IMG/VR virus record: IMGVR_UViG_3300016484_000582
Coordinates: 1 to 24,786 of that record
Length of the DNA stretch: 24,786 bases
DNA from: a virus
Lineage: Duplodnaviria > Caudoviricetes
Strand: one strand, 5' to 3'
The notes below the pieces were generated by a model that was given only the letters and a program-made list of their open reading frames with translations, was not told the DNA's origin and searched no databases. A program made the position numbers and the translations under genes. Below, piece by piece: positions 1-13,421 of the stretch; position 1 is the stretch's first letter; every line of letters starts with the position of its first letter.

Positions 1-84
1 GGTTAAGTCTGCTTGTGTGCCAAGACCATTCCAAAATTTAGGCTCACCACCGCAAAACGGACATGGTTTTAATTTATCTTTCAT
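1..84 (-). CDS. Lar-family (restriction alleviation-like) zinc-finger protein, truncated by the window edge
   Basis: Not in the ORF track. Manual translation from ATG at 84 gives MKDKLKPCPFCGGEPKFWNGLGTQADLT. The LKPCPFCG start is typical of Lar-like phage proteins. SD GAGGGGAG lies upstream. Confidence 0.7.
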   Translation of the reverse strand, partial: MKDKLKPCPFCGGEPKFWNGLGTQADLT

Positions 85-85
85 T

Positions 86-391
86 TCAAATTCTCCCCTC
101 GTCATTGGTTGCCGCTTGTGCAATAAACCGCCGTAATTGGTCAGCGGAAAAAGGGCTAAGCCCTGCTTTCTCCAAAGCGTGCTTGGCTGTCTCCCCACCG
201 CTCATAGCTAGCCCTGCGATGTACCGTGTACTCATCTCGTCTATGCCTAATTTATCGTGGTAATACACACACAACTCTGAATACAAAGCTTGCACAGCTT
301 CGCCTTCGTCGCCAAAGAGTTCATTGCACAAGATTTTTGTTTTGCTATCATGTTTTAAAGCCTCAGCCCATGTTTTTGATTTATCGCTCAT
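86..391 (-). CDS. hypothetical phage protein (101 aa)
   Basis: ORF packed tightly in the leftward operon; ends ...NDEGRI. Confidence 0.7.
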   Translation of the reverse strand: MSDKSKTWAEALKHDSKTKILCNELFGDEGEAVQALYSELCVYYHDKLGIDEMSTRYIAGLAMSGGETAKHALEKAGLSPFSADQLRRFIAQAATNDEGRI

Positions 392-397
392 CTCAAA

Positions 398-709
398 TCA
401 CCACCATGCAGGCTCGAGGGAATTCTTGGCTTGCCGCCATTTTTTAGTGTCTTTCTTCAAAACCTTGCCGTTAGAAACCACGGGAACAATCTTAACAATC
501 GTGAGACTTTTAAGGAACTCCACGGGTTTTTTTTCCTCGTCCAGCCATACGCCAGCATTCATGCACTCAGTGTAAAACAATATACCTCTTTCATCTTTGT
601 AAATATGAACCTTATTCCCATACTCATTCCACAATTCATATTCCTCTGAATTATCAATATACGACTCATAAAGTTCGACAAGTTTCAAGCATGTTTTATT
701 GTTCCGCAT
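398..709 (-). CDS. hypothetical phage protein (103 aa)
   Basis: ORF with a GGGAGG SD inside the 3' end of the upstream gene. Confidence 0.7.
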   Translation of the reverse strand: MRNNKTCLKLVELYESYIDNSEEYELWNEYGNKVHIYKDERGILFYTECMNAGVWLDEEKKPVEFLKSLTIVKIVPVVSNGKVLKKDTKKWRQAKNSLEPAWW

Positions 710-710
710 C

Positions 711-929
711 TTAAATCCTCCCTTCGTCGTCGTTAGCGTATGGAAACTTTACCACTGGCGGGTAGATATAATCATGCGCGGCAAGCCAAGCATCGCCACT
801 ATCGCAAGTGCTCCGTGATGCCTGCACTAGACGGCCAAGCAAGGCTTTTGCTCGTTCAAGTTCCGTTCTCAATTTTGCCTGTTCGCGTAAAGCAAATTCC
901 AGTTTAATTTCTGCATTTTGATGGTTCAT
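711..929 (-). CDS. hypothetical phage protein with a coiled-coil N-terminus (72 aa)
   Basis: ORF with AAGGAG SD; ends ...NDDEGRI. Confidence 0.7.
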   Translation of the reverse strand: MNHQNAEIKLEFALREQAKLRTELERAKALLGRLVQASRSTCDSGDAWLAAHDYIYPPVVKFPYANDDEGRI

Positions 930-941
930 AATTGTCTCCTT

Positions 942-1484
942 TTAACCAAAAATTTCCCGAAACAGGTTTTCTTGGAATTTTTTTTCAGCATCAACCCAAG
1001 AAGCATCCCAAGCAGCTTGAAGAACTGTACCAAGTGCAGCATCCCACCAATAAATAGCATGAGCAGCAGCATAAGTAGCATAAACAACAACCCAAGCAGC
1101 ATTCTCACCTTGCTTAGCATAAGTAGCCTTATTAGCAGCATCAGCAGCAGCCTCTAAATCTGCCTTGGTGATTTTACCCGCTAGATAATCTTTTGCGGCT
1201 TGTATTGCTAATCGTGGACGTTTCTCATTAGGAAATTCCTTTTCAAAGATAAGCAGCGCGTTCTCCGCATATAGGATAGCAAACTGAATTATTTTTTCAC
1301 GGTGCTGGTCGAAAACAGTGCGAATGCACCACAGCGCATCACGCAAGCCGTTACTCTCTAGTATAGATACTAACGCTAAAGGTTCATCGTCGGCCTGTGC
1401 TTTGCCTAGGCTTGACAACAGTTTATCCAAACTTTTGTGTGTTACAAAAGCACTGATTTTATTAAGGGTTGTGTAAACGGTCAT
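942..1484 (-). CDS. Imm5-like / Ala-rich helical phage protein
   Basis: Motifs LESNGLRDALWC and FEKEFPNEKRPRLAIQAAKDYLAGKIT, then an Ala/Trp-rich tail, recalled as a common phage family. GAGGT SD. Confidence 0.65.
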   Translation of the reverse strand: MTVYTTLNKISAFVTHKSLDKLLSSLGKAQADDEPLALVSILESNGLRDALWCIRTVFDQHREKIIQFAILYAENALLIFEKEFPNEKRPRLAIQAAKDYLAGKITKADLEAAADAANKATYAKQGENAAWVVVYATYAAAHAIYWWDAALGTVLQAAWDASWVDAEKKFQENLFREIFG

Positions 1485-1493
1485 GGTTGTACC

Positions 1494-1772
1494 TCAAAAT
1501 GGGATTTCGTTATCAGCAAATGGTGCTGGCTCTACTTGTGTTTTTATTTGCTTTTTCAAGTACTCGCTACCACCGACAGGTTCAATTTTAAGGGTACATT
1601 CCACTTGCCCATTGTAGAGATTAGGCAACGGCAATGCGTTGAGTTTAATCAAAATACTGCCGTCGTTGTTTTCAAAAGCTACACCTATTGTAGTATATTT
1701 GGTTCCTTGCTTCCCGTTTTTGGCTGTGTAACTGTTCAGTGCTTTAACTTCTCTGGATGCTATTCCTGACAT
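1494..1772 (-). CDS. single-stranded DNA-binding protein-like
   Basis: Short beta-rich protein (YTTIGVAFENNDGSILIKLNALP) with an SSB-type acidic tail (DNEIPF), directly downstream of erf. Confidence 0.6.
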   Translation of the reverse strand: MSGIASREVKALNSYTAKNGKQGTKYTTIGVAFENNDGSILIKLNALPLPNLYNGQVECTLKIEPVGGSEYLKKQIKTQVEPAPFADNEIPF

Positions 1773-1776
1773 GATA

Positions 1777-2655
1777 TTACTCCTCTGGTTGATTGATGGG
1801 TTGAACTTGATTGTCTTGTAATTTTTGCAATGATGTAAAAAATTTTGTATCTGGTATGGTGATTAACTTGTAAAATGTATCAGCTGTTACGTCGGAGACT
1901 TCGATACCCTCTTTTGTTTTGAATTTATCAAAAAATGCTTTTTGAATTTCCGGCGTTGCGCCAGTAAAGGCCGCATACAATTTCAACTTATCATGAGATG
2001 TTATCTCCACAGGTTTCTGGACTGGCTTAGGGGCTTCATGATTTACTTTATTGCCGTCAATATCATCACCAGTACTGATATTAAGCAGGGCACACAAGGC
2101 AACACGGCGTAAATACGATACGGTACTCGATATAGCTTGTATATCAGTTTTATTAGAATTCCCCTTAGTACCTGCACCGTCCAATGGCATTGTTAAGTCG
2201 CTATATTCAGAGTGACCGCGGCTGTGTAAAAGCTCCACCCTAACCGTAACCGATGTTTCAGTCTGATTAATAATTTTATGCTTCGTTGCAAAATTATATC
2301 TACCAAGTACTGGGTCTATCTCTTTGTTAATATCCTCTAGCTTTGCATAATTAGATTTTGTGTGCGGGTTTTTGTGATTTTTAATCACAACCGGAAGGTG
2401 TGGCTTCATTTTTACAAAGTCTTTTGTAAATTCCAACTTTGCAATCCGATCTTTTTCAGCATTACGCATCCGGATAAGCCCTTCGAGGACAGCTACATTC
2501 CCCCTTTCCGCTGCTTGCAGAATTGCATTTGTAATAACATTATTACTGACAGCAACGGCTTTTGTCTCATGCTCGTGAGCCAATACTTGATAATGATGCG
2601 CGTCTTGATCGGCGTTGTTGCGATCAATCTCATCCTGTTCATCTTCGTAAGACAT
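1777..2655 (-). CDS. erf: ERF-family single-strand annealing recombinase
   Basis: KSNYAKLEDI, LLHSRGHSE and QAISSTVSYLRRVALCALLNISTGDDIDG match the ERF signature (GSxxTYxRRYxL...DDxDG). Confidence 0.85.
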   Translation of the reverse strand: MSYEDEQDEIDRNNADQDAHHYQVLAHEHETKAVAVSNNVITNAILQAAERGNVAVLEGLIRMRNAEKDRIAKLEFTKDFVKMKPHLPVVIKNHKNPHTKSNYAKLEDINKEIDPVLGRYNFATKHKIINQTETSVTVRVELLHSRGHSEYSDLTMPLDGAGTKGNSNKTDIQAISSTVSYLRRVALCALLNISTGDDIDGNKVNHEAPKPVQKPVEITSHDKLKLYAAFTGATPEIQKAFFDKFKTKEGIEVSDVTADTFYKLITIPDTKFFTSLQKLQDNQVQPINQPEE

Positions 2656-2685
2656 TTTGTTTATCCTTTCTACGTGGTTTAAAAT

Positions 2686-3030
2686 TTACAGTGGTCCCCC
2701 GCCCAGAAAAGTGGGCAGGATTTGGGGCAGGTATCCTTTAATCTCAAGAATCGCAATGATACTCCCCATAATCATTGCTACAGCAGCAGCAAAATATAAG
2801 CCAAGATTGCTACGCTTGCGCTCCAACGCTTTGTTGTCGGCCATAAGATAATCCGAATATCCACTATGTTTATTTGGGAGTATTGTATCGACCCAGTTTT
2901 GCAAGTTGTTTGCAGCTTCTTGCGCACTTTTTTCTGCCTCGATCATCTCAAAACCAGCTTGTATCAGTGTTGGTTTTGTTCCAGAGGCTTCGGCATCCCA
3001 GCCGAAACGCTTAGGATTGTTGGTGTTCAT
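2686..3030 (-). CDS. hypothetical protein with one C-terminal transmembrane segment
   Basis: Start moved to ATG 3030 (MNTNNPKRFG), which overlaps the upstream stop (ATGA) and has a GGAG SD. Hydrophobic stretch LGLYFAAAVAMIMGSIIAIL. Confidence 0.65.
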   Translation of the reverse strand: MNTNNPKRFGWDAEASGTKPTLIQAGFEMIEAEKSAQEAANNLQNWVDTILPNKHSGYSDYLMADNKALERKRSNLGLYFAAAVAMIMGSIIAILEIKGYLPQILPTFLGGGPL

Positions 3031-3224
3031 GACTCTACTCCTAATTTGCAGGCTATTTTTGACAGTTTCCAATTAATATTTATTAATTTTAACTCAGTAT
3101 CCATTCTCATATTATGAGAAAGGTCTTTATCAAGTAAAGACTGCAAAAATTCACGAACGCAGTAAAGACCGTGAATATAATATCCAAATTTTTTATACCC
3201 AGCGATCATCTCTTGAGTGGTCAT
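3027..3224 (-). CDS. hypothetical protein, first gene of the leftward operon (65 aa)
   Basis: ORF with a strong AGAAAGGAG SD; no HTH or peptidase S24 motif visible. Confidence 0.65.
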   Translation of the reverse strand: MTTQEMIAGYKKFGYYIHGLYCVREFLQSLLDKDLSHNMRMDTELKLININWKLSKIACKLGVES

Positions 3225-3248
3225 ATTGTGGTCTCCTTTCTGAAAATA

Positions 3249-3276
3249 AATATAGCATACTTTTTTAGCTGTGCAA
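3249..3276 (-). promoter_or_regulatory. possible leftward sigma70 promoter
   Basis: TTGCAC (3276-3271) N16 TATATT (3254-3249), with an upstream A-tract. Confidence 0.4.
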
Positions 3277-3290
3277 CAGTTTTTTTTATT

Positions 3291-3319
3291 TTGACGAAAA
3301 AAAAGTTTTGCTGTACTAT
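3291..3319 (+). promoter_or_regulatory. rightward sigma70 promoter
   Basis: TTGACG (3291-3296) N17 TACTAT (3314-3319), followed by AGGAGG SD and ATG 3340. Confidence 0.65.
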
Positions 3320-3339
3320 AACAAATAGGAGGCTATTTT

Positions 3340-3522
3340 ATGAAACTTGAGGCATATCTCAAAAAAGAAAGGATGACGCAAAGGGAATTTGCAAAATTAA
3401 TCAATGTTGACGAGTCAACATTAAGCCACTGGCTAACAGGTTTACATCGTCCCTCTTGGCCTGCGATGTTTAAAATTGTTGATATTACCAATGGTCAAGT
3501 TAAACCCAACGATTTTTTTTGA
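3340..3522 (+). CDS. Cro-like XRE-family HTH regulator
   Basis: MKLEAYLKKERMTQREFAKLINVDESTLSHWLTGLHRPS...TNGQVKPNDF is a typical phage Cro/XRE sequence. Confidence 0.85.
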   Translation: MKLEAYLKKERMTQREFAKLINVDESTLSHWLTGLHRPSWPAMFKIVDITNGQVKPNDFF

Positions 3523-3534
3523 AAAGGAATCAAC

Positions 3535-3801
3535 ATGACACAGTGGCAACCTATTGAGACTGCACCGAAAGATGGATCAAAAATAATCCTATTTTATATA
3601 GATCGCAAAGGTAACAAGCGGACGGTTTTTGGACGGTGGATGACTGATGAACAAGCGGAAGATTGCGACCGCGATGGCGTAGGCCTTAAAGCTGGCTGGT
3701 ACGAAACCATCGAAAACTGGGGAGATTACTCCTTCGTAGCAATCTCTGGAGGTGAGCCAACCCAGTGGATGCCCCTTTTTTGGAAGGAGGAAGGAGAGTA
3801 A
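3535..3801 (+). CDS. DUF551-like phage protein, copy 1
   Basis: N-terminal WQPIETAPKDG and C-terminal PTQWMPL motifs. Confidence 0.8.
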   Translation: MTQWQPIETAPKDGSKIILFYIDRKGNKRTVFGRWMTDEQAEDCDRDGVGLKAGWYETIENWGDYSFVAISGGEPTQWMPLFWKEEGE

Positions 3802-3803
3802 CC

Positions 3804-4046
3804 ATGACACAGTGGCAACCTATTGAGACCCTCCCCAAGGACTGGAAACGAATTTTAGTTTTTGGGGTCAAAACTGGCGAACTTAGCGGAGAAGCTGAGC
3901 ACCCTGATATTTGGCTATGTGAAAACGAAATTGGTAACGGAACTTTTTGCATTGTTGGGTGCGAATATTATGGAGCGTGGGTCTATAACCCCACTCGCTG
4001 GATGCCCCTGCTACCACCACCAGCAATAATCGAAAAAGGAGAGTAA
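3804..4046 (+). CDS. DUF551-like phage protein, copy 2
   Basis: Start moved to ATG 3804 (MTQWQPIETLPKD...PTRWMPLLPPP), AAGGAG SD. Confidence 0.8.
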   Translation: MTQWQPIETLPKDWKRILVFGVKTGELSGEAEHPDIWLCENEIGNGTFCIVGCEYYGAWVYNPTRWMPLLPPPAIIEKGE

Positions 4047-4047
4047 T

Positions 4048-4302
4048 ATGACCATCCCCAACACCAGCCTAACCAGCATCATCGAGCGCATCGAACGCCT
4101 CAATGAGGACGTTAAATACCTAAAGCAAGACCTGAAAGAGGTTTTTGCAGAGGCTAAGGCGACAGGCTTTGACGTGAAAGTGTTAAAGCGGCTTGTCAAG
4201 CTTCGTGCCGCCGATCCTGTTGAAGCCGCAGAGCTAGCCGCCGTCCTTGAAGCCTACGCCGCCAACATAGGGCAACCAGAATTGCCGGATTTGTTTGTAT
4301 GA
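4048..4302 (+). CDS. gapR: GapR / DUF2312 (UPF0335) nucleoid-associated DNA-binding protein
   Basis: LTSIIERIERLNEDVKYLKQDLKEVFAEAKATGFDVKVLKRLVKLR matches the family pattern IERIERLEEEK...IKEVYAEAKxxGFDxK. Confidence 0.85.
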   Translation: MTIPNTSLTSIIERIERLNEDVKYLKQDLKEVFAEAKATGFDVKVLKRLVKLRAADPVEAAELAAVLEAYAANIGQPELPDLFV

Positions 4303-4490
4303 AATTCTTTTTTAAAAGAAAAAAAGTAACCAGATATAGGATAAAACAAACCGAACCAGAGCTTTTTTTTGTACAGGTAAATATTAGTGACAATGACTGG
4401 TGGGCTATAGATGTCGCCTATTCTTTGGAAGAGGCTGAAGAAATCTTAAATAGATTAATGTCGTTTCCAAAAATTGTGAAAGAAATATAA
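4299..4490 (+). CDS. hypothetical protein (63 aa)
   Basis: ATGA overlap with the gapR stop; fills the operon gap. Confidence 0.65.
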   Translation: MKFFFKRKKVTRYRIKQTEPELFFVQVNISDNDWWAIDVAYSLEEAEEILNRLMSFPKIVKEI

Positions 4491-4521
4491 GTTGAGAAAT
4501 AACGCGAGAAGGAGAATAGCT

Positions 4522-4866
4522 ATGAATTACTACCCCATTACGCCAGTTCCTAAACCAAGCATGACCCACGCCGATAGATGGAAAAACCGCCCCTGCGTGC
4601 TGCGGTATTTTGCCTTCAAGGACGAAGTAAGACTTCGCAAGGTTACTTTTGATTCCGGGAGTATTATTACATTTCATCTTCCCATGCCTAATTCGTGGAG
4701 CGCAAAGAAAAAAGCAACCATGAATGGCAAGCCGCATAAGCAAACACCTGATTTTGACAATCTCATGAAGGCTTTATCCGACAGCGTTTATAAGGATGAT
4801 TCACACATCAGCAGCATCAGCATTAGAAAGATATGGGCGTATGAGGGTGGTATAACAATAGAGTAG
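4522..4866 (+). CDS. rusA: RusA-family Holliday junction resolvase
   Basis: PDFDNLMKALSD...DDSHI catalytic motifs. Start moved to ATG 4522 after the AAGGAG SD. Confidence 0.85.
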   Translation: MNYYPITPVPKPSMTHADRWKNRPCVLRYFAFKDEVRLRKVTFDSGSIITFHLPMPNSWSAKKKATMNGKPHKQTPDFDNLMKALSDSVYKDDSHISSISIRKIWAYEGGITIE

Positions 4867-4873
4867 AATTAAC

Positions 4874-4902
4874 TTGATTTTAACGATAGATTAAAATAGT
4901 AT
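4874..4902 (+). promoter_or_regulatory. putative promoter of small RNA 1
   Basis: TTGATT N17 TAGTAT; the predicted +1 falls near the first G of the RNA closing stem. Confidence 0.55.
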
Positions 4903-4909
4903 GAACATT

Positions 4910-4978
4910 GGGGCTAGGGAGTGGTTGCCCGAAAGCCGTCAGAATTATCCTTTCACTGACCAGCACGCCCCTTTTTTT
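4910..4978 (+). ncRNA. putative C4/CI-like antisense small RNA 1 (three-way junction)
   Basis: P1 GGGGC/GCCCC, TA linker, P2 GGG/CCC with loop AGTGGTTG, GAAA linker, P3 GTCAG/CTGAC with loop AATTATCCTTTCA, then T7. Both loops are complementary to the repeated leaders at 2660-2680 and 8066-9339. Confidence 0.7.
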
Positions 4979-4991
4979 ATCCATAATTAAC

Positions 4992-5020
4992 TTGATTTTA
5001 ACCCACGCTTGGTATAGGGT
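4992..5020 (+). promoter_or_regulatory. putative promoter of small RNA 2 / replication gene
   Basis: TTGATT N17 TAGGGT, with the same geometry as unit 1. Confidence 0.5.
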
Positions 5021-5026
5021 TTAACC

Positions 5027-5094
5027 GTGGCTAGGTATTGCAAGACCGAAAGCCCGATCTTTCCCTCGTCGGATGGGTTGCCACATATTTTTTT
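5027..5094 (+). ncRNA. putative small RNA 2, structural paralogue of RNA 1
   Basis: P1 GTGGC/GCCAC, TA, P2 GGT/ACC with loop ATTGCAAG, GAAA, P3 CCGA/TCGG with loop TCTTTCCCTCG, then ATA-T7. Compensatory changes against RNA 1 occur in P1 and P2. Confidence 0.65.
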
Positions 5095-5116
5095 GACGAG
5101 GAACGACGGGGTTATT

Positions 5117-6010
5117 ATGTCTATTGAAATCATGTCGCTTGTTTTCAAGGCGGCAATTCCCACAACACAAAAATTTGTGCTGATTGCCATTGCCGACCAT
5201 TGTAATCAAGACGGCAAAGGTTGGCCGTCTATTCAGCGGATCGCATCCCACACCTCTTTACAAACACGGACAGTGTACCGAGCCATTCATGACCTAGAGA
5301 CATGGGGCTTTTTGTCCAAAAGTCACAATCCACACTCCAAATCAACTTTATACACTATAAACAAAGCTGTATTGCTAAAACATCTGACTAATGGTCAGAT
5401 GACACACGATCACCTGACTGACGATCACCCTGACACACGATCACCCTCACCCCTGACTGACGATCACCCTACCCCTGACACACGATCAGGGGTACCCCTG
5501 ACTGACGATCACCCTAACCATAATATTAACCATAAAGAACCACCAAAAGAACCGTCATTAGCAAAATTGCCTTTTGACGATCCGGTTATCGAAAAGCCTC
5601 CCAAGGTGAAAAAGCCTAGGGCAATGCAAATGCCCAAAGGGTGGAAGCCGCACGATGCTCACCGGGCTAAGTGTGCTTCCTACGGGCTTGATCCGGAAGA
5701 CCTAGCCGAAAAGTTTGAAAACTATCACGCATCAAAGGGAAGTTTGTTTGTTGATTGGGACAGGGCTTTTTTCACTTGGATAGGAAACGCTAAAGAATTC
5801 AACCAAAACCACAGAGGATCGAACAATGAAAACTATCGGAAACCTAGCAACAAAGCTCCTACAATCGACGGAGAAACAGGAGAAATCATCAATGACCAGC
5901 TTTCCGGCAACTCTTTTGGAAACAATCCCAAACGAGACCAAGGAATGGATAAAGCGCAACGAATCTACGCTGGTGCAATGCACCTCTATGAAAGCAAGAT
6001 ACGGCAGTAA
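5117..6010 (+). CDS. phage replication initiator with N-terminal winged HTH (HTH_36-like)
   Basis: MSIEIMSLVF...KFVLIAIADHCNQDGKGWPSIQRIA...RTVYRAIHDLE, internal iterons, and C-terminal EKFENYH...VDWDRAFFTWI. Start moved to ATG 5117. Confidence 0.85.
   Translation: MSIEIMSLVFKAAIPTTQKFVLIAIADHCNQDGKGWPSIQRIASHTSLQTRTVYRAIHDLETWGFLSKSHNPHSKSTLYTINKAVLLKHLTNGQMTHDHLTDDHPDTRSPSPLTDDHPTPDTRSGVPLTDDHPNHNINHKEPPKEPSLAKLPFDDPVIEKPPKVKKPRAMQMPKGWKPHDAHRAKCASYGLDPEDLAEKFENYHASKGSLFVDWDRAFFTWIGNAKEFNQNHRGSNNENYRKPSNKAPTIDGETGEIINDQLSGNSFGNNPKRDQGMDKAQRIYAGAMHLYESKIRQ
5400..5513 (+). repeat. six 15-bp iterons, probable replication origin inside the initiator gene
   Basis: TGAC(AC/TG)ACGATCA(CC/GG) starting at 5400, 5415, 5431, 5454, 5476 and 5499, followed by an A-rich tract. 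Same layout as lambda ori within O. Confidence 0.85.
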
Positions 6011-6392
6011 ATTCAATGAGAATCGCGGCGCATGGGAGTTTGATGTAGTCGGTGAAGAGTTGCCTAGCATTGTGATTGAAAATCTTCCCGAAGGCACAAA
6101 AAGCGAGATCATGAAATCGGCAGGTCCGGCAATCATCATAGGGTTGCTTACATCGCTAACTATTATCAAAAAAAGCACAAGGCCAGAATCAGAAATGATT
6201 TTTATCATGCAAGAGTTAGCATCTGATTTCACAGGGATTCCGGTGATCGCTGCACAGTTGGCTTTTGAAAGCCTTAAGCGCGATCCGTCCCCTTGGTTCC
6301 CGGATTATCACGTTATCGTAGAGCGGTTTAACGACTTCACGAAACGGGTTGGTCTTATCAAAGACGCTTATTTGATTGAAGAAAGGAAATAG
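5826..6392 (+). CDS. hypothetical protein in the helicase-loader (lambda P) position
   Basis: 188-aa ORF with AGAGGA SD, overlapping the initiator 3' end. Function inferred from position only. Confidence 0.6.
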   Translation: MKTIGNLATKLLQSTEKQEKSSMTSFPATLLETIPNETKEWIKRNESTLVQCTSMKARYGSKFNENRGAWEFDVVGEELPSIVIENLPEGTKSEIMKSAGPAIIIGLLTSLTIIKKSTRPESEMIFIMQELASDFTGIPVIAAQLAFESLKRDPSPWFPDYHVIVERFNDFTKRVGLIKDAYLIEERK

Positions 6393-6394
6393 TT

Positions 6395-6955
6395 ATGTTT
6401 AACGGTAAATCTTACGAAACCAACATTTTGCTTAACCGTCTGAACGGTTGGAAACGTCAAGTCGCGGAAAACTCCAGCGAAAAGCCGCTGATCCGGTTGG
6501 TGCTCGCTCTTGAAGGCAGCCAATACATGGAAAAATACAGCGCGGTGGTGGCAAGAATGCACTTTGATGCGAAAATATTATACAATAACAGGAAGATAAT
6601 CAAGTCTGTGCTTGGCGAAAAAGTCATGATATACAGCCCTGATAGTCTTGCCAAAAAACTTGCTAAAGAATATCTTGATTATGCCCATTTAGAGGAAAAA
6701 GCCACAGCAAAACAAGAGGGCTGGTATCCTGCGTTAGAGGAATATTTAGCCAGTGCCGCGCTTACCCAGGCACAATACCTAGTTAACGCAAAGGTAACAT
6801 ATTCCGTGCCACCGCACAGAGAACCTACAGAACAACACATTGACACATACCTGAGCCATTGCCAGATTCAGGCTGAAACAGGTAAAATCGAAGTGCTATT
6901 GAATCAAAAAATTATTAACGCAGCAAAAGAACAGCGCGTTCGGCTTTACGAATAA
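6395..6955 (+). CDS. hypothetical protein (186 aa)
   Basis: Long ORF, GAAAGGA SD, 2-bp gap from the previous gene. Confidence 0.75.
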   Translation: MFNGKSYETNILLNRLNGWKRQVAENSSEKPLIRLVLALEGSQYMEKYSAVVARMHFDAKILYNNRKIIKSVLGEKVMIYSPDSLAKKLAKEYLDYAHLEEKATAKQEGWYPALEEYLASAALTQAQYLVNAKVTYSVPPHREPTEQHIDTYLSHCQIQAETGKIEVLLNQKIINAAKEQRVRLYE

Positions 6956-6988
6956 CCAAGTTTTTTAACTAAGAGAAAGGATTTAACC

Positions 6989-7399
6989 ATGTTTGAGCCA
7001 CAAATGACAGAACCAACAGACGAGTTTACTCTCTTGAAAGTTATCGCAGAAATCCGCCAGAAAACTGGTATAGGCGATAAAGTAATGCTGGCTGATTTAG
7101 CCGGTGTTCTGGCTGGGCTTATCCAAAACGGAGAATCGGCGATCGAGACCAATAAACAGCTTGTGAAGAAATTGAAAAAAGCAGAAGAATCCCTAGAAGA
7201 GGGTGTTGATTTGGTTTTTTATTTAGGAGAAAAGCTTCCAAGTTGGTCAGATGACACACCACTCGGCGGCATTGAGGAACGGTTTGAGAATTTATCAGAT
7301 TGGGCTTTAAACTGGATGGGCTTTCAAGGTGAAGGATTAAAACCGTCGCTAAGGCCGTTTTTATTGACACCAGACCACCCTAACCATATGCTCGGCTAG
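6989..7399 (+). CDS. hypothetical protein (136 aa)
   Basis: AGAAAGGA SD; contains IAEIRQKTGIGDKVMLADL. Confidence 0.75.
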   Translation: MFEPQMTEPTDEFTLLKVIAEIRQKTGIGDKVMLADLAGVLAGLIQNGESAIETNKQLVKKLKKAEESLEEGVDLVFYLGEKLPSWSDDTPLGGIEERFENLSDWALNWMGFQGEGLKPSLRPFLLTPDHPNHMLG

Positions 7400-7423
7400 G
7401 GTAGTAGCCAAAAGGATAGAAAG

Positions 7424-7642
7424 ATGCTCACAGAGGCTTTAAAACGTGAAATCGAGGTATTAAACAAGATGGCCAATGCAAGGGCTACACCCTATCACAT
7501 ATTACAGCGCAGAAATATTTACGTTTTCTGGTATCAAGCACCAGACGATGACAACACAGATGTTGAATTTTTTGATGAGAACTTGACCACAGGCCTAAAC
7601 CGCCTTATGCGGGAGATTTATGCCTATCCGGTGGTGTGGTAG
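7424..7642 (+). CDS. hypothetical protein (72 aa)
   Basis: AAAGGA SD; last gene of the rightward run. Confidence 0.65.
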   Translation: MLTEALKREIEVLNKMANARATPYHILQRRNIYVFWYQAPDDDNTDVEFFDENLTTGLNRLMREIYAYPVVW

Positions 7643-8068
7643 TTAAATCTGTTTGGTGCAGATTTCATGGCTGTGAGCTTGTCGTTGTTTTCGAGCCTTG
7701 TTTTCAGCTTCTGCACTGCCCCATGCAAAAATAGCTATCATTGTAAAAATTGAAAAAACTACAAAATTTATAAAAACAAATGTCGATAGTTCTTTGTGAA
7801 AATTACTAATTTTGTATTTATTATCATCCGCCCATAGACAGTACGGTAAAATTGGTATGCTTAAGCCAATAAAAAGAATGGACAGTAGATTTATTTGTTC
7901 CGTAACCAATAAATAAATCGGGAAAGCAGCAGATAAAAACAAAGATATTCCAATTAAAGTATCTGCGTGCCACAAATAATCTTTAACAAAGAAAACAATG
8001 TTTTTTAATGTCCATAAAAATATAATGGAAAGCACTGTTATTGTTACAATTGTAATTGCTGTTTGCAT
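7643..8068 (-). CDS. membrane protein with about four TM segments, last gene of the inverted island
   Basis: Four hydrophobic stretches; preceded by the repeated leader AAAGGATTAACATCATG. Confidence 0.75.
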   Translation of the reverse strand: MQTAITIVTITVLSIIFLWTLKNIVFFVKDYLWHADTLIGISLFLSAAFPIYLLVTEQINLLSILFIGLSIPILPYCLWADDNKYKISNFHKELSTFVFINFVVFSIFTMIAIFAWGSAEAENKARKQRQAHSHEICTKQI

Positions 8069-8072
8069 GATG

Positions 8073-8228
8073 TTAATCCTTTAATTTGTGGGTTAATTTA
8101 TACTCGGCCATGCAAACTGCAACGTATGAGGCTACCTTTGCCGCTACGCATGGAGGCAGGATATAGTCCATGCGTTTATAGCCTAGCTTTTTCAGTTTTG
8201 CTTTATACCGCTGTTGTTTAGTTTGCAT
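8073..8228 (-). CDS. small basic protein (51 aa), possible ribbon-helix-type DNA-binding protein
   Basis: Not in the ORF track. MQTKQQRYKAKLKKLGYKRMDYILPPCVAAKVASYVAVCMAEYKLTHKLKD; start overlaps the upstream ORF end and the stop lies in the next leader. Confidence 0.55.
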   Translation of the reverse strand: MQTKQQRYKAKLKKLGYKRMDYILPPCVAAKVASYVAVCMAEYKLTHKLKD

Positions 8229-8298
8229 AAAGCACCGTTGCTGTTAAGATGAGCGTAAAATTAAGAATTGAGGCCATGATGTGAATTGCGAGGCGCAT
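8218..8298 (-). CDS. 26-aa hydrophobic peptide
   Basis: Not in the ORF track. MRLAIHIMASILNFTLILTATVLYAN, preceded by the leader CAACCACAGAAAGGATTACTACTATG. Confidence 0.55.
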   Translation of the reverse strand: MRLAIHIMASILNFTLILTATVLYAN

Positions 8299-8358
8299 AG
8301 TAGTAATCCTTTCTGTGGTTGTGAAATGATAGAGTACAGAGTGAAGGTTAAGATGGTG

Positions 8359-8604
8359 TTATCCGATACAGATTTCTTTTCCATCAATTTCAAGGTCGAT
8401 TGTTAAATCGTCTCCCCAGTTGGAAAACTGTTTAATTATTTCGGCTTTGTCCTTTTCGGATAGGGTAACATAATAATGATAGTGGCCTAACGTTCTTTTA
8501 GTGTTTGTTTTTTTAAAAGATATTTTGCCTAAAACATTAACGATTTCCGCGTTCTGTATGATTTCTAGGGCTTCTTTGATAGGGTAAGATTTGAATACGG
8601 TCAT
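8359..8604 (-). CDS. hypothetical protein (81 aa), inverted island
   Basis: ORF preceded by ACCACGAAAGGATTAACATCATG. Confidence 0.8.
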   Translation of the reverse strand: MTVFKSYPIKEALEIIQNAEIVNVLGKISFKKTNTKRTLGHYHYYVTLSEKDKAEIIKQFSNWGDDLTIDLEIDGKEICIG

Positions 8605-8634
8605 GATGTTAATCCTTTCGTGGTATGAGGCATA

Positions 8635-8680
8635 ATTGCACCATGCTACACCCCCCGGGGGAGGTGTAGGGTGCTACAAT
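8635..8680. other. GC-rich bulged intergenic hairpin
   Basis: GCACC-atg-CTACACC-CCCC/GGGG-ga-GGTGTAG-GGTGC; no adjacent U-tract on either strand. Confidence 0.75.
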
Positions 8681-8789
8681 CTAAGCTAGCCAAGAATACC
8701 GTTGATATATATTCGTGCGATCGAAACCCATAACGATAGCTAAATAACCGGGGCGATTATCCAAATAGGCTAATCTGTGCTTTTAACAT
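8681..8789 (-). pseudogene. island slot with a full leader but only a 10-codon ORF; possible frameshifted 35-aa gene
   Basis: ATG 8789 reads MLKAQISLFG*. Removing one A from TTAAAAG gives MLKHRLAYLDNRPGYLAIVMGFDRTNIYQRYSWLA*, ending at 8681. Confidence 0.4.
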
Positions 8790-8825
8790 GATGTTAATCC
8801 TTTCGTGGTTGGTTGCGTTATTTAA

Positions 8826-9053
8826 TTAATCTTTTATGGCTTCGTATGCGTATTCATCACTGCCGTTGCAGACACAAATTTTAAAGCGATTTACCCTTTC
8901 ATTTTTGCCTTTTTGACCGCGCGCCGCGTCATCGCGATAGCTTTTTAAAATGTCTTTTAATCCGTACATGGCTTTAAAATAAGAAACATTTGTGTACCCG
9001 GTTTTGCTGTATTTGCCGTGAACCCCGATTTTATAAATCGTGTACGTTGTCAT
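8826..9053 (-). CDS. hypothetical basic protein (75 aa), inverted island
   Basis: Start moved to ATG 9053 (MTTYTIYKIG), after the leader CAACCACACGAAAGGATAAACACCATG. Confidence 0.8.
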   Translation of the reverse strand: MTTYTIYKIGVHGKYSKTGYTNVSYFKAMYGLKDILKSYRDDAARGQKGKNERVNRFKICVCNGSDEYAYEAIKD

Positions 9054-9094
9054 GGTGTTTATCCTTTCGTGTGGTTGCTTATGAGTGTAATTCT

Positions 9095-9125
9095 GAGGCC
9101 AGCTTATTCGCTGGCCTCGCTTTTT
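9095..9125 (+). terminator. hairpin GAGGCCAGC/GCTGGCCTC followed by GC-T5 on the + strand
   Basis: Perfect 9-bp stem with a 6-nt loop; the T-tract is on the strand opposite the island genes. Confidence 0.55.
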
Positions 9126-9312
9126 AACTTGCCAACACATGCCACTGATTTAACTCCTGCTTTGTTAGGAGTAAAATGCCCATAGGGTGTTTGATATTGT
9201 AAGCTTTGATTTTTTTCACGATTTTCTGTGTCTCTTCCCAGATCATATCCCCTGTGTTTGTTGGGTGAAAAAAAGCTGCGTTGTAAGCGTTGAGTAATTT
9301 CTTTGCGGTCAT
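9124..9312 (-). CDS. hypothetical protein (62 aa), first gene of the inverted island
   Basis: ORF preceded by CAACCGCACGAAAGGATTAACATCATG and a strong promoter. Confidence 0.8.
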   Translation of the reverse strand: MTAKKLLNAYNAAFFHPTNTGDMIWEETQKIVKKIKAYNIKHPMGILLLTKQELNQWHVLAS

Positions 9313-9347
9313 GATGTTAATCCTTTCGTGCGGTTGGTTATGAAAGC

Positions 9348-9376
9348 AGTATATTGGTATCCGGGATACTTGTCAA
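9348..9376 (-). promoter_or_regulatory. near-consensus sigma70 promoter with a palindromic operator in the spacer
   Basis: TTGACA (9376-9371) N17 TATACT (9353-9348). Inverted repeat GTATCC-G-GGATAC at 9357-9369. Upstream A-tract. Confidence 0.85.
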
Positions 9377-9523
9377 CGGTTTTTTTAAAAAAATATTTTG
9401 CTGTATAATCAGTGTGATGTAATCATGCAGAAGGCCTTACTGCAATTTTGTGGTGAAAATTATTTGAAGAGAATTGCAAGGCGTTGTAAAATAATGCAGT
9501 TGGAAAAATATCGGAGTTATAAA

Positions 9524-9898
9524 ATGACACACGAAAAAAATAAAGAAACCAGTTATGTTGCGAGAAGGCTTGCCTCTCTTGGATGCCCCTTTGAAGATAT
9601 TGCCAAAAAATTAAATATTTGCAGCGATACACTGGTTAAAAAATATAAGCAAGAATTGGACGCTGGACGCATAGACGCTAATTCTGCCGTGGCTGGTTCG
9701 CTTTATAAAAAAGCCATTAATGGTGACACGGCGGCGGCGATTTTTTGGCTCAAAACAAGGGGTGGAAAGGGTGTCTGGAAAGAAACCGATCGCCTTGAGG
9801 TAACAGGTGCAGACGGTGGCGCGGTGGCTGTTGCTGCAATTGACGCAAGCAAGCTGGACAGCGAAACGCTGTCCAAAATTCTTGCCGCTAAGCAGTGA
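9524..9898 (+). CDS. terS: terminase small subunit
   Basis: HTH (IAKKLNICSDTLVKKY), LYKKAINGDTAAAIFWLKTR and EVTGADGGAV motifs; overlaps the terL start. Start moved to ATG 9524 (GGAG SD). Confidence 0.8.
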   Translation: MTHEKNKETSYVARRLASLGCPFEDIAKKLNICSDTLVKKYKQELDAGRIDANSAVAGSLYKKAINGDTAAAIFWLKTRGGKGVWKETDRLEVTGADGGAVAVAAIDASKLDSETLSKILAAKQ

Positions 9899-11370
9899 CT
9901 GTTACAATAACGACTGCCGATCTGTTAAACATCGATCGGGAATATTGCCGTCGATCGTTAGCCAATTTTGCCAAGCGCGCATGGTTGCAGCTTGAGCCTA
10001 CCACGCCGCTTAAATGGGGATGGGCACTTGATGCCATTTGTGAGCATTTGGAGGCCGTAACTGACGGAAAAATAAACAGGTTATTGATGAACGTACCGCC
10101 GGGCAGCATGAAGTCGCTGCTAACTGGCGTCATATGGCCGGCTTGGGAGTGGGGCGCAAAAGGTATGCCGTCCATGCGGTACGTTGGCACAGCGCATGAG
10201 GAACAGCTAGCCATCCGTGACAGCCGTCGTTGCCGCGATCTCATCAAGTCTCAGTGGTATCAGGAGCTTTGGCCACTGGAGCTACTGGCCGATTTAGACG
10301 GCAAAAGAGAATTTGGGAATGTGCACAAAGGTGTAAGACAGGCAAGGGCTTTCACGAGCATGACAGGTGTTCGCGGTGATAGGGTGATTATTGACGATCC
10401 CATTAGTGCCGATGCTGCTAACAGCGATGCTAAGCTTGAGGCTGCTAAGATCGCGTTCACTGAGTCGATCCCTACGCGCGTCAACAATGACAAGTCCGCT
10501 ATCGTCATCATTATGCAGCGACTTAATGAACGTGATATAAGCGGCGTCATCCAAGACATGGGCTTACCTTATGTGCACTTGTGCATCCCCATGCGCTATG
10601 AGCGAGCGAGGCACTGCACCACGTCCATAGGGTGGAGTGACCCCCGCACTGTTGAGGGCGAACTAATGTTCCCCGATAGGTTTTCGGATGAACAAGTGCG
10701 CGAGCTTGAAAAATCGCTTGGCACATACGGTTCAGCCGGGCAGTTACAGCAAAGGCCTGCACCGCGCGGCGGCGGCATTATCAGCACGGCATGGTTTAAA
10801 TTCTGGACGATGCTACCTCAACTCGAGTATCGCTTTATCACAATCGACACGGCGCAAAAGACAGGCCAGCAAAACGATTACAGCGTCATGCAGTGTTGGG
10901 CGCGTTCAATTGTTGGGCAAGCGGTCATGATTGACCAGGTGCGTGGCAAGTGGGAAGCCCCCGAATTGCTGGTGCAAGCCCGCGCCCTTTGGCTCAAGCA
11001 TCAAGGGGACATGCGAGCGCCTGCCCTTAAAGCACCATTGCGTGGTATGTACGTTGAGGACAAGGTGAGCGGTACGGGGCTCATCCAGACACTGCGGCGT
11101 GAGGGCTTGCCCGTCTTGGCTGTCCAGCGCAACAAGGACAAGATAAGCCGCGCTTATGATGCCGCACCGTTTATCGAGTCTGGCAACGTCATACTACCGC
11201 AGGATGCGCCGTGGCTGTCGGATTTCTTGGGCGAAACGTCATCATTCCCGGCCGGGGCACACGATGACCAGCTTGACCCAATGTTTGATGCTATAGGCCT
11301 TGTACAAAGGACTCAATCGCAGACAAGGCCGCAAACATTTATACCCTTGCCAATTAAAAACAAATGGTGA
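9895..11370 (+). CDS. terL: terminase large subunit
   Basis: Walker A NVPPGSMKS, Walker B VIIDDP, nuclease IDTAQK and HDDQLD. Confidence 0.95.
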   Translation: MTVTITTADLLNIDREYCRRSLANFAKRAWLQLEPTTPLKWGWALDAICEHLEAVTDGKINRLLMNVPPGSMKSLLTGVIWPAWEWGAKGMPSMRYVGTAHEEQLAIRDSRRCRDLIKSQWYQELWPLELLADLDGKREFGNVHKGVRQARAFTSMTGVRGDRVIIDDPISADAANSDAKLEAAKIAFTESIPTRVNNDKSAIVIIMQRLNERDISGVIQDMGLPYVHLCIPMRYERARHCTTSIGWSDPRTVEGELMFPDRFSDEQVRELEKSLGTYGSAGQLQQRPAPRGGGIISTAWFKFWTMLPQLEYRFITIDTAQKTGQQNDYSVMQCWARSIVGQAVMIDQVRGKWEAPELLVQARALWLKHQGDMRAPALKAPLRGMYVEDKVSGTGLIQTLRREGLPVLAVQRNKDKISRAYDAAPFIESGNVILPQDAPWLSDFLGETSSFPAGAHDDQLDPMFDAIGLVQRTQSQTRPQTFIPLPIKNKW

Positions 11371-11381
11371 TATGAGACATT

Positions 11382-13421
11382 ATGGATGACTATAAAAAGC
11401 CATTAAAATACGATGATGATAGCAGCGCAGAACGCGAACTGCATGAGACTGCGTTAAAGCAGTATGATGATATTTACTCTATTTATCAGCGGGAAAGAGA
11501 GACTTCCCTAGAAGATAGGCGGTTTTATTCTATCGCCGGTGCACAGTGGGAAGGCAATCTTGCCGATATTTTTGAAAACAAGCCTAAATTTGAAGTAAAC
11601 AAAACACATCTTGCGGTGATGAGAATCATCAACGAGTACCGCAATAATCGCATCACAGTTAATTTTGTGAGCAAGGACGGCGGCGCACAGCAAGACAAGT
11701 TGGCCGATGTGCTGCAAGGCTTATATCGCGCTGATGAGCAAGACAGCGTTGCTGATGAGGCATACGATAACGCCTTTGAAGAGGCAGTGGCAGGGGGATT
11801 TGGGGCATGGCGGTTGACCCATAAACTGGAAAATGAGGAAGACGAGGACGACGATCGGCAACGGATTTTCATCGAACCAATCTTTGATGCAGATCAGACC
11901 GTTTTTTTCGATCCAGACGCTGAGCGGCAAGACAAGAGCGATGCTAAATATTGCTTTTTGTTGCGCTCGATGAGTCCAGACAAATACAAGGAAATGTTTG
12001 ATGATGAGCCAGCCTCATGGCCTAAAATCGAAAACATGAAAACTACTTTCGACTGGAACACAAAAGATAATGTTTACGTTGCCGAATATTACAAGGTTGA
12101 AGAAACAACAAAAACTTTCCAAATTTGGAAAGATATTAACAATGAAGAAATGAAATTTGATGTTCAGGAATTAAAAGATGATCCTGAAATTGTTAGAGAA
12201 TTGAGAGCAACAGGGGCAAGTTTTGTATCCAAGAAAAAGATTAAAACAACCAAGGTAAGAAAGTATATTCTGTCCGGCGGCGGCCTCCTTGAGGATTGCG
12301 GTTATATTGCGGGCAAGCATATTCCTATTGTGCCTGTTTATGGGAAACGTATTATCGTTGATGCCATCGAGCGTTGCATTGGTGCAGTCCGCTACCTAAA
12401 AGACCCGCAGCGCATCAAGAATATGCAGTTAAGCAAACTTGCTGAAATAAGTGCTATATCATCAGTCGAAAAGCCGATTGTTACCCCTGAACAGATAAGC
12501 GGTCATCAGAATCTCTGGGCAGAAGACAACATCAAAAACTATCCTTATTTGCTTTTAAACCCTATTACCGATGCAACCGGGCAGCAAGTACCTAGTGGCC
12601 CCGTTGGATACACTAAAAGCCCACAAATACCGCCTGCGCTTGCTGGTTTGCTGGCCGTAACTGAGCAAGACATTCAAGAGATTATTGGTAGCCCGCAGCA
12701 AGCAGAAAAGATGGTGTCTAACATCTCTGGTAAGGCTGTGGACATGATCCAGCAGCGCATCGATATGTTGTCTTATGTTTACATGAGCAATCTTGCCAAG
12801 GCCATGAAGCGTTGCGGTCAAATTTGGCTTTCTATGGCAAAAGACTTGTATGTCGAAGATGAGCGCATCATGCGTTATGTAGCGGACGATAAAAAAATCA
12901 AACCCATTCAGTTAATGAAACCAATAATTGATAAAGATACAGGCGTATTAACGCACGAAAACAACGTAAAAGATGCCAATCTTGACGTTAGCGTTGATGT
13001 GGGACCATCTTCCAGCTCTAAAAAGTCCGCCACTGTAAGAGCATTAACGGGCATGGTAGCCATTGCCGATGATCCAGAAACAAAGCAGGTTTTACTGTCG
13101 ATGGCGATGTTAAACATGGAAGGCGAGGGCATTCAGGACATCAGGGACTACTTCCGCAAGCGGTTAGTGCGTGCTGGCGTTATCAAACCAACGGAAGAGG
13201 AAATGCAAGCCTTGCAAGCGGAAATGCAAAATCAACCGCCTGATAGTCAAGCAATGCTGTTGAATGCTATGGCTGAAGAGGCTAACGCAAAAGCTAGCAA
13301 AGCTCGCGCCGACACGATGGAAACGATGGCGTCTGCCGATCTAAAGAGAGCGCAGACCGTAAAGACTTTGCAAGAGACAGGCTTGCGAAGACAGGCGGCA
13401 ACCGTCCAGCCGTCATTTTGA
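11382..13421 (+). CDS. P22-like portal protein
   Basis: 679 aa after terL; DRRFYSIAGAQW, PKFEVNK, GGFGAWR, IPIVPVYG and NISGKAV motifs. Confidence 0.92.
   Translation: MDDYKKPLKYDDDSSAERELHETALKQYDDIYSIYQRERETSLEDRRFYSIAGAQWEGNLADIFENKPKFEVNKTHLAVMRIINEYRNNRITVNFVSKDGGAQQDKLADVLQGLYRADEQDSVADEAYDNAFEEAVAGGFGAWRLTHKLENEEDEDDDRQRIFIEPIFDADQTVFFDPDAERQDKSDAKYCFLLRSMSPDKYKEMFDDEPASWPKIENMKTTFDWNTKDNVYVAEYYKVEETTKTFQIWKDINNEEMKFDVQELKDDPEIVRELRATGASFVSKKKIKTTKVRKYILSGGGLLEDCGYIAGKHIPIVPVYGKRIIVDAIERCIGAVRYLKDPQRIKNMQLSKLAEISAISSVEKPIVTPEQISGHQNLWAEDNIKNYPYLLLNPITDATGQQVPSGPVGYTKSPQIPPALAGLLAVTEQDIQEIIGSPQQAEKMVSNISGKAVDMIQQRIDMLSYVYMSNLAKAMKRCGQIWLSMAKDLYVEDERIMRYVADDKKIKPIQLMKPIIDKDTGVLTHENNVKDANLDVSVDVGPSSSSKKSATVRALTGMVAIADDPETKQVLLSMAMLNMEGEGIQDIRDYFRKRLVRAGVIKPTEEEMQALQAEMQNQPPDSQAMLLNAMAEEANAKASKARADTMETMASADLKRAQTVKTLQETGLRRQAATVQPSF

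Follow-up and report, generated by a model that had tools for sequence, protein, structure and literature searches.

The loops of the c4 RNA of phages P1 and P7 display sequences that block translation by pairing around a ribosome-binding site (PMC12197685), and the CI RNA of P4 pairs with two sites (PMC4825925). In cluster K mycobacteriophages, an asymmetric start-associated sequence (SAS) stands in one orientation at the ribosome-binding sites of non-structural genes and has conserved positions beyond the part that pairs with 16S RNA (PMC3203893). The promoter early stem-loop (PeSL) cassettes of T4-type phages are repeated regulatory elements where non-essential genes are gained, lost and replaced (PMC2839356). 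Here, we describe an inverted island of small genes (positions 7643-9376, minus strand) and a structured element, RNA 1 (4910-4978, plus strand), in a 24,786-nucleotide (nt) stretch of phage DNA (Duplodnaviria; Caudoviricetes; IMG/VR virus record IMGVR_UViG_3300016484_000582, positions 1 to 24,786; hereafter the window). On balance, we think it probable from sequence comparison that the island is a variable one-promoter cassette under two likely controls: a 51-amino-acid (aa) protein that would repress its own promoter at a palindrome, and RNA 1, which would block translation through a repeated leader.

An initial annotation of the window had proposed an inverted island of seven tiny open reading frames (ORFs) behind a TTGACA-N17-TATACT promoter, six of them opened by near-identical leaders and some separated by hairpins, and most of this layout held up. 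Seven minus-strand ORFs (62, 75, 10, 81, 26, 51 and 141 aa) follow a sigma70-type promoter, TTGACA-17-TATACT (9348-9376, minus strand), that scored 11/12, the highest among 35 promoter-like sites in positions 1-12000; the third is a 10-codon mini-ORF, and "tiny" is a poor description of the last. Among 15 relative islands, which we retrieved with the 51-aa ORF as query, 13 have a like promoter, and for 2 the promoter was not obtained. An 18-nt leader core, GAAAGGATTAACATCATG, occurs six times in the island: exactly at 9327, 8804 and 8619, with one mismatch at 8083, two at 9068 and four at 8313. An extra copy with three mismatches lies outside it at 2670, before the gene for an ERF-family annealing protein (1777-2655). 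The leaders are built of an A/C-rich ACCAC stretch, a gap of 0-3 nt, GAAAGGAT, a spacer and the ATG; leader 6 (8083) lacks the upstream ACCAC part and has only the GAAAGGAT part. On the minus strand they occupy 9310-9340 (leader 1, with its loop-1 site, Shine-Dalgarno sequence and ATG), 9051-9080 (leader 2), 8787-8812 (leader 3), 8602-8626 (leader 4), 8296-8322 (leader 5), 8066-8100 (leader 6, within the 3′ end of the 51-aa ORF) and 2653-2680 (the copy before the ERF gene).

RNA 1 is one of two tandem elements, 4910-4971 (RNA 1) and 5027-5084 (RNA 2), that fold as three-way junctions, with stability not above that of shuffled sequences for either. With its U-tail, RNA 1 extends to 4978, and it displays loop 1 at 4920-4927 and loop 2 at 4943-4955. 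RNA 2 (5027-5101 including its downstream site, plus strand) is a canonical int-alpA-like leader of the replication initiator gene (5117-6010), with a palindromic loop 1 and its own downstream site at 5095-5101. Both window RNAs contain the CUAG and CGAAA linkers of the int-alpA three-way junction (Rfam RF02996). They missed the RF02996 gathering cut-off of 35.8 bits (RNA 2 scored 18.5 bits; RNA 1 gave no match), and an Rfam scan of the whole window yielded nothing useful. A motif common to the two RNAs matched 75 viral stretches, many of which fold alike, and 12 loci, found mostly via the scaffold pattern of the window, gave six RF02996 matches above the cut-off. We assessed membership with a covariance model built from 32 relatives without the window, four of whose rows pass the RF02996 cut-off; 10 of 42 scaffold matches had been removed before alignment as near-duplicates or likely chance matches. 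This model recognized RNA 2 at 58.4 bits and RNA 1 at 25.8 bits (E 1e-4). The stems co-vary, as 8 of 12 pairs have changes on both sides across 34 aligned rows.

The family rows that we inspected head a gene, often a replication initiator, and RNA 1 departs from them in both loops. A loop-1 palindrome of at least 4 nt is present in 29 of 33 family members, and RNA 1 alone lacks any. In the int-alpA consensus, loop 2 complements the DNA that immediately follows, as is true of RNA 2 and not of RNA 1: loop 2 fitted its own downstream DNA better in 28 of 34 rows, with RNA 2 ranking 7th (7-nt site) and RNA 1 last, at 34 of 34. In RNA 1 the U-tail is followed by no gene, and the downstream target is lost. 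RNA 1 probably arose as a tandem duplicate of the replication-initiator leader RNA 2. Both RNAs were found in four of four runs, from four studies. Across these runs RNA 2 takes three loop-1 types, while neither loop 1 of RNA 1 nor the TCCTTTCA part of its loop 2 (4948-4955) has a listed change. At least three further studies also cover RNA 1. The IMG/VR relatives have the RNA 2 type only and no RNA 1, wherever the contig includes the region. A pattern combining promoter and scaffold had five viral, five metagenome and one genome match, with no RNA 1-like element among them. Searches with the loop-1 patterns of RNA 1 gave 16 viral and 88 genome matches that we judged to be chance; four passed a structure scan, and the model gave no score to any of the viral ones.

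The loops of RNA 1 are complementary to the island leaders. Loop 1 matches CAACCAC and loop 2 matches GAAAGGATAA. When we ranked 45 gene starts of the window, a set of our own choosing, by two-loop pairing with RNA 1, the top five were the starts of slot 2 (7 + 10 nt), the ERF gene, slot 5, slot 3 and slot 1, with slot 4 seventh. Two-part sites occur seven times in the window, six of them at leaders, compared to a mean of 0.38 and a maximum of 2 in 100 shuffles. The predicted folds leave both RNA 1 loops open and the leaders mostly unpaired. The initial annotation had placed any newly captured gene under the control of RNA 1. The RNA exists, and its loops specifically complement the ERF leader as well as five leaders of the island; the generalization was not supported as stated, since the leader of the 141-aa gene has no loop-1 site and ranks 19 of 45.

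Two post hoc comparisons bear on how specific this match is. The pairing of RNA 1 with the six leaders scored -21.1, and the next best of 33 loop pairs from the family scored -16.1. Other loop sequences that match as well as those of RNA 1 were rare: 19 of 65,536 8-mers for loop 1 and 430 of 200,000 13-mers with a fixed CCTT core for loop 2. These results are relevant to the view, which we consider unlikely, that the leader does no more than provide a strong, duplicated start for translation and a joint for recombination, and that the RNA 1 match is a by-product of anti-Shine-Dalgarno bias, a copied start motif or a host target. Loop 2 is in general anti-Shine-Dalgarno in the family, as this view would have it; since the other family loops score worse, however, a general anti-Shine-Dalgarno bias does not explain the match of RNA 1. 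Moreover, loop 1, invariant in the four runs, matches the part of the leader outside the Shine-Dalgarno sequence, and both sites are also on the unlinked ERF leader. The window leaders also pair better with RNA 1 than those of relatives, even at the same slot, with a mean of -19.4 (n = 6) compared to -13.1 for the 15 distinct island leaders of relatives, although leaders are not independent of one another. Speaking for a by-product are the relatives without RNA 1, which also have repeated leaders and variable slots, and a two-part motif that is present as a single copy in 10 of the 15 relative loci.

Other members of the family vary in ways that touch on this question. Derived second scaffold copies precede the canonical element by about 290 nt at L041 ~9705-9770 (G005:17093) and L047:1639-1694 (G010). 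Their loop 1 is non-palindromic, loop 2 is conserved and the stems differ, and they are possibly also retargeted. The two-part target is absent from the records of both, a fact that favors the by-product view. Canonical members (e.g., L018:9963-10031 and the next 60 nt) have many loop-1 palindrome types and often two tandem downstream loop-2 sites, a layout that could go with kissing dimers bearing two loop-2 arms, and with incompatibility specific to each type. In L341, L342, L345 and L346, the canonical element has both linkers altered (CUCG and CCGCAUA), with a possible compensating junction pair.

Several observations count against control of the island by RNA 1. Leader 6 ranks as a non-target. 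RNA 1 itself varies at 4944 and 4947 and by a 1-nt insertion (runs X2, X3, X9 and X12), changes that shorten the match to the window leaders, and no contig joins these loop-2 variants to their own leaders. The sites in the leaders and the loops in the RNA run in the same 5′-3′ order, so two separate loop contacts would be needed. The single two-part motif of the 10 relative loci stands before a rightward gene and is found in the complete relative G001, which has no RNA 1; thus, the motif can exist without the RNA. Finally, the best single match overall (8 + 11 nt, -25.5) is the leader of the rightward gene in relative L043. The counterpart leader in the window (6960-6991, plus strand) keeps GAAAGGAT and lacks the loop-1 site found at the matching place in relatives, and three relatives' leaders also lack this part. 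The L043 pattern could mean that a co-expressed gene has escaped RNA 1, that RNA 1 is directed at competitors, or that RNA 1 came to match a common start motif.

If the second of these applied, RNA 1 would be aimed mainly at the rightward leader of related competitor phages, its own matching site having escaped. The 8/8 loop-1 match occurs only at the relatives' site, reaching 8 + 11 nt in L043, and the matching leader of the window has no loop-1 site. There is also a precedent, as c4 RNA confers heteroimmunity between P1 and P7 (PMC12197685). Six leaders of the phage itself bear both sites, however, which a purely outward weapon would avoid; three relatives likewise lack the site before that gene, and escape is a single case. 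We regard this explanation as quite unlikely. We also considered whether the single RNA of L018 targets its own island and dropped the idea, as L043 has a like leader and a different loop.

In the reading that we prefer, the island would be strongly transcribed on entry and then dampened by its own repressor. RNA 1, presumably made from the rightward region after its promoter fires, would later shut the island off at translation. With loop 1 docked on the A/C-rich ACCAC part of the leader and loop 2 over the Shine-Dalgarno sequence, five of the island starts would be silenced, along with the coupled repressor gene and the ERF gene. Two features lead us to infer repression rather than activation: the leaders are largely unpaired, and it is the Shine-Dalgarno sequence that loop 2 covers. 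It is highly improbable, in our view, that RNA 1 pairs with the leaders and instead activates, stabilizes or processes the island mRNA, or is a decoy in the RNA 2 circuit. IsrK, a phage leader-derived small RNA (sRNA), does activate translation in trans (PMC4825925), and the hairpins of the island might act as signals for processing or stability. However, mostly unpaired leaders leave little to open, the Shine-Dalgarno sequence itself would lie under loop 2, and the RNA 1 loops match the replication-initiator leader poorly.

The hairpins themselves fall between slots, as the initial annotation had noted. Two folds were significant, 9070-9135 (z -4.1) and 8620-8700 (z -3.2), and a third, 8100-8215, sits within the 51-aa ORF and was not (z -1.0). 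The hairpin at 9094-9119 has a T-run solely on the plus strand and is therefore no terminator of the island mRNA. That at 8640-8682 is without a U-tail on the island strand, and a promoter and terminator scan found no terminator-like site on the minus strand of the island.

The second proposed control involves the basic 51-aa protein (8073-8228, minus strand), the stable core of the island. The spacer of the island promoter contains a palindrome, GTATCC-C-GGATAC (9357-9369), which occurs once in the window, is a likely operator, had gone unnoticed in the initial annotation and co-varies with this protein. In 11 relatives whose 51-aa homolog has the strand RRSYI or RRNYI, the palindrome is GGTGACT-W-AGTCACC; in two relatives with RIDRI, and in the window with RMDYI, it is GT(A/G)TCC-N-GGATAC. 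The varying residues fall just ahead of a proline and a helix, the place at which ribbon-helix-helix (Arc-type) proteins carry their DNA-reading strand. The 51-aa protein is thus likely, as judged from this co-variation, to be a ribbon-helix-helix-like autorepressor that acts at the promoter palindrome. Arguing the other way, the operator-protein pairs amount to a few linked alleles, and the predicted fold rests on an Atlas lead, PF11455 (MazE-like family), at 0.89 and 16% of members. The protein had no Pfam match, and fold searches with its model (predicted local distance difference test, pLDDT, 82; predicted template modeling score, pTM, 0.43) gave no match, with a best Z of 3.9. Just upstream, a hydrophobic 26-aa ORF (8218-8298, minus strand) is kept in most relatives. 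Its 3′ end overlaps the start of the 51-aa ORF, and the two may be translationally coupled. In L344 and L347-L349, the 26-aa ORF is missing and the 51-aa coding stretch appears to be fused to, or to lie directly behind, differing upstream starts.

We compared the interval across relatives, as had been suggested for the proposed cassette. Gene content was variable among the 15 relatives and in metagenomes, often switching exactly at leaders. Relatives have 0-5 other genes upstream of the 51-aa ORF, mostly each with its own leader. The stretch 8066-8321 of the window is common to L018 and L043, in which the gene that follows leader 6 diverges from its ATG onward; where the window has the hydrophobic 141-aa ORF of slot 7 (7643-8068, minus strand), relatives have a 98-aa gene instead, exactly from the ATG. 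The first slots of L018 and L043 hold different genes downstream of nearly the same leader, and in L043 the first of these genes has 51% identity to the 75-aa ORF of slot 2 (8826-9053, minus strand). For the 81-aa ORF of slot 4 (8359-8604, minus strand), whose homologs are 67-80% identical, homology to a sister clade starts at the ATG, and in X2 the gene is skipped from leader to leader. Run X3 has another gene from the ATG in place of the family-less 62-aa ORF of slot 1 (9124-9312, minus strand), and leader 1 of X3 and leader 2 of X4 open one and the same foreign gene. Among the joints listed, metagenome contigs skip 8313-8624, 8313-9356 and 9073-9356. The third ORF, a 10-codon mini-ORF (8757-8789, minus strand), is likely the remnant of an emptied slot.

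Together, the turnover at leaders in relatives and metagenomes supports slot-wise exchange. Breakpoints fell inside leaders in 6 of 11 listed cases, with positions entered by hand, and leaders make up 13% of the island; repeats draw alignment breaks, which weakens this count. The leaders may serve as short homology joints for gene exchange. Since repeated leaders and variable slots also occur in relatives without RNA 1, a joint role would be independent of RNA 1. The cassette turnover itself is ordinary phage mosaicism. The exact leader pattern had no match in viral contigs. A sister clade (L005, L027, L041, L045 and L052) has its own counterpart of the inverted island 3.4-7 kb downstream of the RNA, in which AAAGGA leaders are repeated and a gene of 61-63 aa, which by eye reads as helix-turn-helix (HTH)-like, replaces the 51-aa protein.

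The cargo could not be tied to anti-defense or host takeover, as the initial annotation had supposed: family and fold searches gave no assignment for any island protein. Comparison with PHROGs, Pfam and NCBIfam, which include no dedicated anti-defense library, gave nothing above noise, and PADLOC matches (E 0.005-0.01) were discarded as noise. The model of the 81-aa protein (pLDDT 71) had no fold assignment (best E 0.04, best Z 5.8), and structural look-alikes of the 75-aa protein are found only among unnamed viral proteins. Because no island protein could be named, the anti-defense reading stays an analogy. By that analogy, the cargo would most likely be early accessory genes, counter-defense or host-modifying.

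The RNA 1 promoter region (4869-4902, plus strand) contains two overlapping TTAA-N7-TTAA boxes, with no difference listed at 4860-4902 in four of four runs, and the RNA 2 promoter contains another (4987-5001, plus strand). TTAA-N7-TTAA is the motif bound by CtrA in phages of Alphaproteobacteria (PMC9437464). Three of the four boxes in the window thus sit in the two RNA promoters, and the boxes are kept in relatives. A total of four is not above chance (11 of 100 shuffles), so placement alone is notable. A GapR-like gene and these boxes suggest that the host is an alphaproteobacterium, and the CtrA-type boxes could link RNA 1 synthesis to the state of such a host. In an alphaproteobacterial metagenome-assembled genome contig (L160 and L163:10001), this 16-nt promoter box stands before a structured-looking leader of a different kind, with no Rfam match.

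A more ambitious model would join these elements. In it, a 60-nt replication-leader scaffold was duplicated and both loops reprogrammed, giving a stand-alone guide RNA, timed by CtrA as cell-cycle regulator of the host, that shuts off a swappable anti-defense cassette via the leader that is also its exchange joint, silences leader-bearing competitor phages, and exemplifies evolution from cis to trans. We hold this full version to be doubtful. If RNA 1 does act as in our preferred reading, the locus would represent a route from a cis leader to a multi-gene trans repressor, a phage sRNA tied to host CtrA, and a compact two-loop scaffold for designed regulators.

The window is a phage record that is 68% complete, and a 37,270-nt contig carries the same proteins. 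Its genes include a P22-like portal and coat, ERF, a Cro-like HTH protein, the GapR-like gene, RusA and an O-like replication initiator; the coat protein is 53% identical to those of Ralstonia phages Firinga and RSK1. Stretches carrying window sequence come mostly from freshwater metagenomes. The island is flanked by replication genes on one side and the terminase on the other, and lies on the opposite strand. A phage collection had no match to the RNA region or the island, and a 136-aa gene had no relative in a genome search. An Imm5-like protein (942-1484, minus strand) is encoded in the early leftward block. The region 3027-3522 contains divergent promoters and a Cro-like HTH gene; the leftward 65-aa ORF there has no repressor family match, and its leader ranks 6 for RNA 1 pairing. 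Adjacent genes open at 3527-3560 and 3796-3829 with a common 34 nt (91% identity) encoding MTQWQPIET. At 7394-7423 (plus strand), a short hairpin with a scaffold-like start, GGCTAGGG, immediately precedes the ORF 7424 leader; five relatives show ~85% conservation across 7325-7445.

How does this locus compare to known systems? The int-alpA motif is said to come from a 2017 motif survey, although the main text of the survey (PMC5737381) is without that name, and our literature searches turned up just two papers naming this scaffold. RNA 2 shares with it the CUAG/CGAAA three-way junction, weak alignment to the Rfam model, a position before a gene and a downstream site that matches loop 2. RNA 1 has the same junction and differs in lacking the loop-1 palindrome, the downstream site and the gene, and in matching six distant leaders. 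The notable part is the retargeted paralog beside its parent RNA. We found no such int-alpA paralog in the literature, where the supplements of the motif survey and bioRxiv papers may describe int-alpA variants. The adjacent parent and derived RNAs offer a view onto both the function of the repeat and the unexplained int-alpA scaffold.

RNA 1 works like c4 and CI in that its loops are complementary to sites at the ribosome-binding site. Those RNAs act on one operon (ant, or the P4 replication genes), whereas the proposed targets of RNA 1 are six starts spread over two transcription units. It is not a member of the C4 antisense RNA family (RF01695), as the covariance model gave no match at E 10, and no C4 alignment was found in seven other loci scanned. 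The promoter end of the island resembles acr-aca loci with the ribbon-helix-helix-type Aca14 (bioRxiv 10.64898/2026.07.27.740549), which also combine a strong promoter and overlapping inverted repeat with variable small genes and a small co-encoded regulator candidate. The island differs in that the PHROGs, Pfam and NCBIfam comparisons found no known anti-CRISPR or anti-defense gene in it and in the second, RNA-based layer proposed here. The 51-aa protein can serve as a marker for mining uncharacterized early genes in such phages. As in PeSL cassettes, genes are gained, lost and replaced at repeats; the PeSL repeat is a promoter plus terminator stem-loop, whereas that of the island is a 20-30-nt translation leader under a single 11/12 promoter. 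The closest parallel in form is SAS, since the island leader is also an asymmetric repeat a few nt before the ATG, in one orientation, at non-structural genes. The leader core is unlike the SAS consensus GGGATAGGAGCCC, the host is different, and the leader is mostly confined to one island. Such repeats have been on record in phages since 2011, and PMC3203893 leaves open whether the SAS partner is an RNA or a protein; at this locus, a concrete candidate partner, a phage RNA, is visible.

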